Below are positions 46,311 through 47,591 of a stretch of 64,000 bases of DNA, one piece after another. The stretch covers positions 9,624 through 73,623 of the forward strand of contig JBBSGK010000003.1 in assembly GCA_038254115.1 (NCBI GenBank), read 5' to 3'. The stretch's first letter is position 1; every line of letters starts with the position of its first letter. A program made the position numbers and the translations under genes. Origin of the DNA: Candidatus Levyibacteriota bacterium. GTDB taxonomy: Bacteria > Patescibacteriota > Microgenomatia > Levybacterales > UBA12049. Under the pieces are notes generated by a model. That model was given only the letters and a program-made list of their open reading frames with translations. It was not told the DNA's origin and did not search any database.

Positions 46311-47591
46311 ATGTTTTTTACTTTTATTTTCTCGCTTTTCCTGGCATTATCTGCGCTTTTTACCGCTCCTTCTCTTGGGTATTTTAACGCAAATGCTATT
46401 GACTTAGTTTTCCCTTTAAAAGCTGACAAATCTGTAGTACTTGCAGGCTCATCTGCTAATGGGGAGAATGCCGTCTGGTGTCATGAAAGCCAATCTAATT
46501 GTCATCATGATTATAATGCTGCTGATATTTTCGCCGTAACCGGTACAACTGTTGTTGCTGCTGTGTCTGGTAAAATAACACAGGCTCATCAAACAAGCTC
46601 TGTTGGTTACACTGTGCATATTTTAGGTGATGATGGGACAATTTATTATCATGCACACATGGGGGGAATAAAAGTATCTATCGGACAAAATGTAAAGCCC
46701 GGCGATGAGATAGGAGCGGTGGGAACATCTGCGGACGCGTCGGGGACACAGCCCCACCTTCATTTCGATATGATCCCAAATAGCTCAGAATTCAATGGAC
46801 TAAGACCTAACTGCAGCGATGCTGCTTGCCAGCAATACCCCTTCATCAATCCCCAACCCCAATTAATAGCTGCTTTTAATGGGGGCACCCTGGGTGGACC
46901 TGGTGGTGGTGGAGCTCTCAAGAGCAATTGTGTTATCACAAAAATCGGCAACCCTCCAAATCCACCCGTGGTCCCCCCAGAATGCCCGGCAGCAAGTGGC
47001 GGAGGTGGGGTCGGTGGCGATGGAACGCCAGGTCAACCAGGACCGAAGCCCCCTGACTATCCCCCTGACTTACGTCAAGCAATTATTAATAAATTTGGTA
47101 TTACAATGAATGGATTCGATGATGAACACCTTCGTTGGGCGTGGGAAAAATTTTGGGATATATCGGGTAGTAAATTTACCAGCTACGTGCAAGGCGCCAT
47201 AGTTGATGCTCAACCCGGCCAAGGCACATCAAGACAAGTAGGTTGTCCGCCTAGCCCCACAGTTCAAATAAGTCAGTATTCAACTGACTATGTGTTTAAA
47301 TTTTTGATTACCCATGAGCTTGGGCATGCAATCCAAATTTGCCATCCTCGTGACCAGGTAAAATATAACGAGCATGAAAATGCACGGGCAACTGAAGGAG
47401 GAGTGAGCAGATATGGGGAGACTTTACTAAATGAGGATTATGCGGATACAATGGCATATGCTGTAAACCCTACAGAAACAATGTCTTCCAATGGTGGGCC
47501 TAATATTGCTGTACATCCTTTTTTTCCCGCTCCTGCACCCAAGCCTTTACATTATAATAATGTAGTGTTACCTGTGTTATTTAATAAATAA
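46311..47591 (+). CDS. secreted M23 (LytM/lysostaphin-type) peptidase fused to a C-terminal HExxH zinc-metalloprotease-like domain
   Basis: signal peptide; M23 motifs CHHDYNAADIFA (HxxxD) and PHLHFDM (HxH); C-terminal ITHELGHAIQICH (HExxH). Confidence 0.7.
   Translation: MFFTFIFSLFLALSALFTAPSLGYFNANAIDLVFPLKADKSVVLAGSSANGENAVWCHESQSNCHHDYNAADIFAVTGTTVVAAVSGKITQAHQTSSVGYTVHILGDDGTIYYHAHMGGIKVSIGQNVKPGDEIGAVGTSADASGTQPHLHFDMIPNSSEFNGLRPNCSDAACQQYPFINPQPQLIAAFNGGTLGGPGGGGALKSNCVITKIGNPPNPPVVPPECPAASGGGGVGGDGTPGQPGPKPPDYPPDLRQAIINKFGITMNGFDDEHLRWAWEKFWDISGSKFTSYVQGAIVDAQPGQGTSRQVGCPPSPTVQISQYSTDYVFKFLITHELGHAIQICHPRDQVKYNEHENARATEGGVSRYGETLLNEDYADTMAYAVNPTETMSSNGGPNIAVHPFFPAPAPKPLHYNNVVLPVLFNK

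Follow-up and report, generated by a model that had tools for sequence, protein, structure and literature searches.

A secreted two-domain protein with an M23 head and a zincin-like domain of an uncurated family in a Patescibacteria type IV secretion cluster

The window analysed here, a stretch of 64,000 nucleotides from contig JBBSGK010000003.1 of a Candidatus Levyibacteriota bacterium, encodes within a type IV secretion system (T4SS) cluster a protein in which a head of the M23 peptidase family is joined to a second domain with a HExxH motif. The open reading frame (ORF) on the plus strand is real exactly where the initial annotation had placed it (46311-47591) and codes for 426 amino acids plus a stop; an identical protein (P0025) occurs in a public protein collection, on a 98-kb contig. 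The C-terminal half is very probably a catalytic zincin-fold metallopeptidase of an uncurated family. This zincin-like family, together with its tight and previously unremarked linkage to the T4SSs of the Candidate Phyla Radiation (CPR), is new to curation, and it is more interesting than the fusion itself. We favour, with a confidence slightly above even, the reading that the protein would be a Sec-exported, T4SS-associated two-peptidase wall hydrolase, which together with a neighbouring esterase/lytic transglycosylase (LT) protein opens peptidoglycan locally.

The classic HExxH zincin motif noticed in the C-terminal half (within ITHELGHAIQ, residues 333-342) is not a chance occurrence, as it is kept at 98-99% in 175 homologues together with a downstream glutamate. 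Across these family sequences His335 (99%), Glu336 (98%), His339 (99%) and Glu375 (98%) stand out, followed by Tyr368 (93%, plus 4% Phe), His414 (89%), Cys312 (87%) and Cys344 (86%). An exhaustive profile search extended the family to at least 306 representatives at 50% identity, 272 of them at E<=1e-10, and a word-indexed search returned 24 standalone secreted relatives of 225-280 aa. The two halves of the protein, M23 (residues 1-202) and zincin, were modelled separately with AlphaFold2 (AF2) and not as one full-length chain. The model of the zincin domain (pLDDT 88.3, pTM 0.81) runs through a helix (domain residues 69-81), three strands (95-99, 105-107 and 114-119), the HExxH helix (124-142), a short helix and, as the next-but-one helix after that of the HExxH, the one that bears Glu375 (171-182). 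This is the order of elements in the zincin-like metallopeptidase (MPTase) core of sheet, HExxH helix and Glu helix defined by Iyer et al. 2017 (PMC5512222). As expected for the zincin/gluzincin superfamily (clan MA), the HExxH lies on a helix, preceded by a beta-sheet and an N-terminal helix, and the glutamate of the downstream helix stands in an ExxxD/E context (NEDYAD), a likeness seen in sequence and secondary structure only. The gluzincin-type ExxxD context takes its name from thermolysin- and neprilysin-type enzymes. As far as the modelling was run, the C-terminal half thus shows the zincin order of elements and not a non-catalytic fold. The Protein Data Bank (PDB) structures matched by Foldseek are mostly zincins, with the gluzincins aureolysin and gentlyase (M4), anthrax lethal factor (LF) and PPEP-1/2/3 (M34) at their head and myroilysin also among them, and a viral structure library (BFVD) gave weak zincin-type matches to polyvalent, minor-capsid and M34-like phage proteins.

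The domain is not a member of M34, M4, M57 or M78. The Pfam scores were all below threshold (M57 with 16.9 bits against 21, M78 with 11.4 against 22, and also DUF6055) and inconsistent, being shown by just 2-4 of 25 family members; M57, M78 and the other curated HExxH families were rejected, as none of them rose above its gathering score. The family profile gave zero matches to PDB sequences at E<=10, and this null result, the lack of any match to Pfam ATLF and the modest Foldseek values (E=0.17-4.8, TM-score 0.38-0.45) led to the rejection of M34 membership. A signature resembling that of M34, with a tyrosine 7 residues before the glutamate (Tyr368/Glu375), was discarded as well: this spacing is a peculiarity of the window protein, because most members carry a Cys loop of about 12 residues between the two. 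Finally, a phage or plasmid origin of the domain was rejected, since tblastn found no match to it in the phage and plasmid collections and no PHROG matched.

The N-terminal half is of M23 type, as had been proposed. Peptidase_M23 (PF01551) matches residues 69-161 with 68.1 bits against a cut-off of 28.7 (E=7.7e-19), 39 PDB sequences, mostly M23/LytM, are matched at E<=10, and many NCBIfam M23 models give sub-threshold domain matches. The AF2 model of residues 1-202 (pLDDT 88, and above 90 over the core, residues 31-190) finds 67 PDB chains at E<=1e-3 with Foldseek, with LytM (2b0p) at a root-mean-square deviation of 2.1 Å over 122 columns. Among these matches are active enzymes (lysostaphin, LytM, StM23) as well as degenerate regulators (DipM, EnvC), so that the fold is compatible with either state and does not decide on activity. 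Two zinc motifs had been read in this half, in CHHDYNAADIFA (residues 64-75) and in PHLHFDM (residues 148-154). The latter does contain a HxH, His149-Leu-His151, but the former holds no literal HxxxD: its residues C64-H65-H66-D67-Y68-N69-A70-A71-D72 offer H66-x5-D72 or H65-x6-D72, with Tyr68 in the place of the canonical histidine. His65 and His66 lie 3 and 2 residues before that zinc-His position, and in the model the stretch from His65 to Tyr68 forms a loop directly ahead of the strand bearing Asp72. Seven residues (H65, H66, Y68, D72, H116, H149 and H151) show no variation across 18 sequences of the subfamily, whose signature is W-C-x6-C-H-H-D-Y-N-A-A-D-I-F. On these alignments, the protein is an M23 homologue with a variant site, for which we do not claim the status of a canonical active M23B enzyme. 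It appears more likely that the site is active with its first ligand displaced, because the other catalytic residues are invariant and a pair of histidines is adjacent. The HHDYNAAD variant of the M23 site is likewise new to curation. With lysostaphin, LytM and StM23 the domain has in common both sequence and fold, including the HxH, the catalytic His and the Asp of the first motif, whereas HHDYNAAD and the extra conserved Cys pairs (W-C-x6-C; RPxC-x4-C) set it apart, as does the shuffling of its subfamily, which elsewhere is joined to the phage-tail lysozyme (PF18013), SLT, GDSL, a beta-propeller-like repeat or a LAS/M74-type peptidase, and here to the zincin module.

What the zincin-like domain may act on is suggested by the company it keeps. 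Its position could be compared in 173 family members, in which it stands alone (80), at the C-terminus of a longer protein (78), internally (12) or near the N-terminus (3). The partners recognised in 68 long members were SLT (10), Amidase_2 (6) and DUF11 (4), with Amidase_3, Glucosaminidase, SLT_2, SLT_3, DPBB_1, M14, M23 and T4SS_pilin found once each; a fusion of GDSL with the zincin occurs in P0043. The only other M23 and zincin fusion that was found, P0123, uses another M23 subtype, which means that this rare combination has originated at least twice. The most telling comparison is with P0026, which over residues 1-255 shares 57% identity with the window protein, from the signal peptide through the M23 domain, the first linker and the TKVGNP motif to the end of the second linker ('YPPDLR'/'YPPNLK'), and beyond that point carries a LAS/M74-type peptidoglycan peptidase in the place of the zincin; together with its sister P0027 (56-57% identity over the first ~255 residues for the two, with a LAS/M74-type peptidase that contains …HDNHFHVD), it suggests, from the alignments, that the zincin and a known wall peptidase are exchangeable cassettes at the same junction. 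The swap is clean at 'YPP[DN]L[RK]' in both proteins. Chiefly in view of this exchange, of the fusion census and of the synteny described below, the zincin would act on the wall.

The Gly/Pro-rich linker that had been noted between the two halves is present (residues 191-250), but it is not a pure linker, because a conserved short motif lies within it (residues 206-225). This motif, TKVGNP, is a short separable module between a Gly and a Gly/Pro linker, and a strict regular expression for it matched 61 of 172 members of the family. In standalone zincins it comes after the signal peptide, in P0026/P0027 (residues ~203-225) it marks the domain junction, and in P0028 (residues ~52-73) it precedes the M23 domain. 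The exchange of peptidase heads (zincin, LAS, M23, lysozyme, GDSL) at this TKVGNP-linker junction offers a clear example of modular wall-hydrolase evolution. As for the motif itself, its consensus is x-C-[VI]-x-T-K-[VI]-G-N-P-x(5-9)-P-x-C, it also occurs at the N-termini of P0122/P0123, it marks the junction where heads (zincin, LAS, M23, SLT-like) swap, and it might be a docking or sorting tag. A cysteine-switch propeptide role for its Cys was considered and dropped, since the Cys is not conserved across the family.

The T4SS context that had been claimed for the gene is borne out by the presence of PrgI and VirB4. The cluster (39059-48648, plus strand) is tightly packed, its neighbouring genes being separated by 41 nt at most or overlapping slightly, and contains between the PrgI-like and VirB4-like genes a protein of 225 aa without assigned identity. 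The dnaN and dnaA genes follow directly on the minus strand (48639-51263) and the cumulative GC skew has its minimum at ~44-46 kb, so the cluster abuts the replication origin. Patescibacteria T4SSs have been described as MPF-FATA-like and often near dnaA (PMC12102498), and their clusters are mostly devoid of a relaxase; the cluster of the window fits this description in its adjacency to dnaN/dnaA and its gene content. A scan of one genome per species recovered 16 loci with the zincin-like domain, labelled Levyibacteriota, Daviesbacteria, Saccharibacteria or 'uncultured Gammaproteobacteria'. In all 14 loci with upstream sequence the gene order is PrgI - X - VirB4 - variable large protein - zincin, with a homologue of the 189-aa membrane-anchored protein of the window before the zincin gene in 4 of them; behind the zincin gene, 13 of the 16 loci have a homologue of the 351-aa one. 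The variable large protein had DUF11 in 6 of ten cases scanned and an SLT_3 or SLT match in 2. The M23 module occurs in none of these loci. Judged by synteny, all 14 informative genomes are CPR. Seven loci (L002, L003, L004, L006, L008, L011 and L016) come from metagenome-assembled genomes named 'uncultured Gammaproteobacteria bacterium', labels that are probably wrong, given the same CPR-type PrgI-VirB4-zincin synteny as in the Levyibacteriota/Daviesbacteria loci.

The putative pathway would start with export of the protein by Sec, as part of a chromosomal Gram-positive-type (MPF-FATA-like) T4SS cluster of CPR/Patescibacteria. The first head would be an M23 (LytM-fold) endopeptidase of the 'W-C-x6-C-HHDYNAAD' subfamily and the second a gluzincin-like one, with the HExxH and Glu375 as presumed zinc ligands and Glu336 as presumed general base. 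Deacetylation and cleavage of the glycan strands would fall to the neighbouring DUF11-GDSL-LT-like protein, and stem peptides or cross-links would be cut by both peptidase heads, making a local gap in the peptidoglycan, of the cell's own wall or possibly of the host's, for the T4SS or a pilus apparatus. The protein could be regarded as a functional counterpart of the VirB1-like enzymes of Gram-positive T4SSs that combine glycosidase and peptidase, with a HExxH zincin in the slot usually taken by CHAP or NlpC/P60. A bolder version, that the domain founds a new HExxH (gluzincin-type) family of peptidoglycan peptidases, a chemistry of wall cleavage that had not been linked to T4SSs before, which in Microgenomates-type CPR epibionts would replace the CHAP or NlpC/P60 head among the T4SS wall hydrolases and be needed for T4SS assembly or host contact, is put forward tentatively, as something possible yet doubtful.

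Known systems offer close parallels. PrgK (pCF10), TraG (pIP501) and CwlT (ICEBs1) likewise belong to MPF-FATA-type clusters, by VirB4 and PrgI, and join glycan-cleaving with peptidase modules, PrgK even including a LytM/M23. In the window, by contrast, the glycosidase (with the esterase) and the peptidases are on separate polypeptides, a HExxH zincin-like domain stands instead of a CHAP or NlpC/P60 cysteine peptidase, and the N-terminus looks like a cleavable signal peptide with no obvious transmembrane (TM) anchor; and while the LytM of PrgK is degenerate, the M23 of the window keeps all but one of the canonical active-site positions. Like VirB1-type proteins, the protein is in a T4SS cluster by VirB4 (14 of 14 informative loci), but Pfam finds in it no SLT/lysozyme glycosidase domain homologous to VirB1, a function that would belong to the neighbouring gene or, in other family members, to fused modules, so that it would be a functional partner of a VirB1-like protein and not a VirB1 homologue. 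The M4 (aureolysin, thermolysin) and M34 (LF, PPEP-1/2/3) enzymes, the top Foldseek matches, have the HExxH helix and a downstream Glu in E-x-x-x-D/E, whereas the domain of the window has no significant sequence similarity to them, aligns with TM-scores of 0.3-0.45, is far smaller (~175 aa) and has the Cys pair C312 and C344. The MPTases of polyvalent proteins (Iyer et al. 2017, PMC5512222) have the same minimal core and are also tied to T4SS-type systems and lysozyme domains; they are, however, parts of large proteins with ArdC-N, ParB or methylases that are injected into the recipient, whereas the family described here is Sec-exported, Cys-stabilised, chromosomal, CPR-confined and fused only to wall hydrolases. 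In Ca. Southlakia epibionticum (Wang et al. 2023; PMC10633639) the wall-hydrolase genes SEML1_0006 and SEML1_0007 likewise adjoin virB4, and for epibiotic growth the homologues of peptidase and lysozyme that lie downstream of virB4 are described as essential (PMC12102498). The structure-based annotation of that species gives 0006 as two lysozyme-like domains plus a Cys proteinase and 0007 as a LAS/M15B DD-peptidase domain, the latter a module of the type found instead of the zincin in P0026/P0027, but no zincin-like domain is annotated in either and the peptidase chemistry differs. Multidomain T4SS wall hydrolases and M23 domains were already known, and Peptidase_M23 has been noted as an extra domain of CPR VirB1 homologues; a zincin or metalloprotease T4SS component is mentioned neither in the searched text of the 2025 survey nor in the Southlakia structure-based annotation.

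Several observations weigh against the proposed two-peptidase wall hydrolase. To our knowledge, cleavage of peptidoglycan by a HExxH zincin is a rarity, if it is established at all. The Foldseek matches of the zincin domain are individually weak (E>=0.1, TM-scores 0.3-0.45), and no curated peptidase family in Pfam, NCBIfam or PHROGs matches it above threshold. The window copy also lacks a loop of ~12 residues (NAxxCTGSxNxS) with both its cysteines that is present in ~93% of its relatives. In the M23 head, Tyr68 aligns with the zinc-His of canonical sequences ('GQHRGIDI', 'HNGIDI'), and the LytM domain of PrgK, the only one of a T4SS that has been structurally characterised, is degenerate and metal-free and just modulates the SLT domain. 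With such a precedent and a non-canonical first motif, M23 activity should not be assumed. Moreover, autoprocessing has been proposed for zincins fused to lysozymes in mobile elements (PMC5512222). Concerning the loop, it is probably disulfide-stapled and near the active site in the relatives; in the window protein its loss falls at residues 369-373, and the catalytic residues are intact.

The proposal of autoproteolysis, made for lysozyme-fused MPTase domains of phage and conjugative-element proteins, leads to a reading in which the zincin is a processing protease that cuts Gly/Pro-rich linkers, either its own or those of neighbouring T4SS proteins, with the M23 as the sole wall-cleaving head. 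Proteins of the cluster do have long Pro/Gly-rich linkers, one family member carries a T4SS_pilin domain, and the domain is C-terminal in 78 of 173 members, in long multidomain proteins. The fold neighbours would also agree, as they include anthrax LF and the PPEP Pro-Pro endopeptidases, which cleave surface adhesins. Nevertheless, 80 of the 173 members are standalone secreted proteins with nothing to self-process, a LAS-type peptidoglycan peptidase can take the position of the zincin, the fusion partners are almost exclusively peptidoglycan hydrolases and not diverse effectors, and tblastn recovers no relatives from phage or plasmid collections. This role seems rather unlikely. An offensive effector that would hit envelope proteins or the wall of a host bacterium in epibiotic parasitism, instead of serving assembly of the cell's own T4SS, seems less probable still. 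The CPR lifestyle and the finding that Southlakia cannot grow epibiotically without its T4SS region speak for it, and so do the fast evolution of the zincin, the extensive module shuffling, typical of conflict systems, and toxin-type zincins such as LF among the fold matches; yet a Sec-type signal peptide and no T4SS substrate signal imply release at the surface of the producer, no adjacent immunity-like gene was identified (though the 351-aa neighbour is uncharacterised), and the strict position in an apparatus operon resembles that of the VirB1-like assembly hydrolases PrgK, TraG and CwlT.

It is also conceivable, with about the same low probability or slightly lower, that one or both heads are catalytically dead and work as regulator or scaffold, in the way that the muramidase of PrgK is down-regulated by its LytM and CHAP domains. 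The degenerate, metal-free PrgK LytM, the Tyr in place of the canonical first His and the Foldseek matches to DipM and EnvC, which are as good as those to active enzymes, are what this view can draw on. Degenerate LytM factors, however, generally miss at least one ligand or catalytic residue, whereas D72, H116, H149 and H151 are invariant here, with H65/H66 beside the displaced position, and the active M23A enzyme LasA itself has a spacing other than HxxxD. As for the second head, conservation of the zincin H, E, H and E at 98-99% would be hard to explain without catalysis. In any case, the two-peptidase wall hydrolase remains the reading that we prefer, and the wider interest lies in the systems to which it belongs. 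The T4SS clusters of Patescibacteria are widespread, lie near the replication origin and contain many unannotated genes, and in the one genetically tractable species they are essential for epibiotic growth. A link of the window protein to epibiotic predation may be envisaged. With this analysis, a conserved, secreted protein of zincin type that always travels with PrgI-VirB4 and wall hydrolases acquires a name and an activity that can be tested. Should it cleave peptidoglycan, it would be a new catalytic type in the wall-breaching toolkit of T4SSs and also a marker for CPR T4SS loci; should it be a processing protease or effector, it would be an entry point to the exports of relaxase-less T4SSs.

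Table 1. Positions in the window of the two-domain protein, its parts and the neighbouring T4SS genes
Feature	Position	Strand	Basis
Whole ORF: signal peptide - M23 - linker - TKVGNP motif - linker - zincin-like domain	46311..47591	+	
Signal-peptide-like N-terminus, residues 1-29, hydrophobic core, ANA|I	46311..46397	+	read from sequence
M23/LytM-fold domain, residues ~31-190 (Pfam match residues 69-161)	46401..46880	+	Pfam, AF2, Foldseek
Variant first metal motif, C64-H-H-D-Y-N-A-A-D72	46500..46526	+	alignments, subfamily invariance
H116, equivalent of the M23 catalytic His (YYHAHM)	46656..46658	+	PDB M23 alignment; invariant
HxH motif, H149-L-H151	46755..46763	+	alignment; invariant
'TKVGNP' motif, N-C-V-I-T-K-I-G-N-P...P-E-C, residues 206-225	46926..46985	+	regular-expression census
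Zincin-like (gluzincin-type) domain, residues ~251-426	47061..47588	+	family profile, AF2, weak Foldseek matches
HExxH, H335-E-L-G-H339, on long helix	47313..47327	+	conservation; AF2 helix at domain residues 124-142
N374-E375-D-Y-A-D379, with E375 as putative third zinc ligand	47430..47447	+	conservation; AF2 helix at domain residues 171-182
PrgI (VirB3-like) + CarboxypepD_reg, first gene of the cluster	39059..40387	+	conserved synteny
VirB4-like T4SS ATPase	41065..43245	+	Pfam TraG P-loop 4.2e-25, AAA_10; 44-77% identical in 14 loci
607-aa protein, DUF11 + GDSL/SGNH esterase + C-terminal LT-like domain	43265..45088	+	profiles, homology, motif
Two small membrane-anchored proteins, 189 aa and 203 aa	45130..46304	+	ORF list, synteny
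351-aa membrane-anchored protein (tm351)	47593..48648	+	conserved downstream neighbour of the zincin gene

Regarding the remaining features, the view of a secreted protein agrees with the signal-peptide-like N-terminus, where the AF2 model of the N-terminal half has an isolated helix at residues 2-17, and with the conserved cysteines. The 607-aa neighbour had been described as an LT/esterase. Its GDSL/SGNH esterase is confirmed by similarity to the Pfam-recognised GDSL of P0043 (32% identity, E=5e-17), although Pfam itself misses it, whereas its LT part is seen as an E-S...GLYQ motif read from the sequence, in a domain that no profile recognises, and in the SLT_3/SLT matches of 2 of 10 counterpart genes. 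The N-terminus of this protein is charged and of low complexity, followed by a TM segment. The 351-aa protein is a two-repeat paralogue of the 203-aa protein (45693-46304); neither has a Pfam or NCBIfam match, and both are candidates for an anchor, an inhibitor or a T4SS channel partner of the zincin protein. No RNA feature of the window matched at Rfam gathering thresholds, and the promoter and terminator scans stayed at chance level.

L010, the locus with the VirB4 closest to the window's (77% identical), has a zincin with only 29% identity, from which it follows that the zincin domain evolves much faster than VirB4. Its zincin is part of a protein of 610 aa (4961-6793) with a signal peptide, a weak GDSL match, a TTRVGDP motif and a His/Cys-rich middle domain; the idea that this middle domain is a divergent M23 was rejected, as there is no Pfam M23 match even at E<=1. 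The C-terminal CarboxypepD_reg (Ig-like) domain of the PrgI/VirB3-like protein is also fused to two members of the zincin family. Upstream of the cluster (31104-38632), two PMT_2-type glycosyltransferases, an NAD-dependent epimerase and a DUF2298 membrane protein are encoded in what looks like an envelope glycosylation block.

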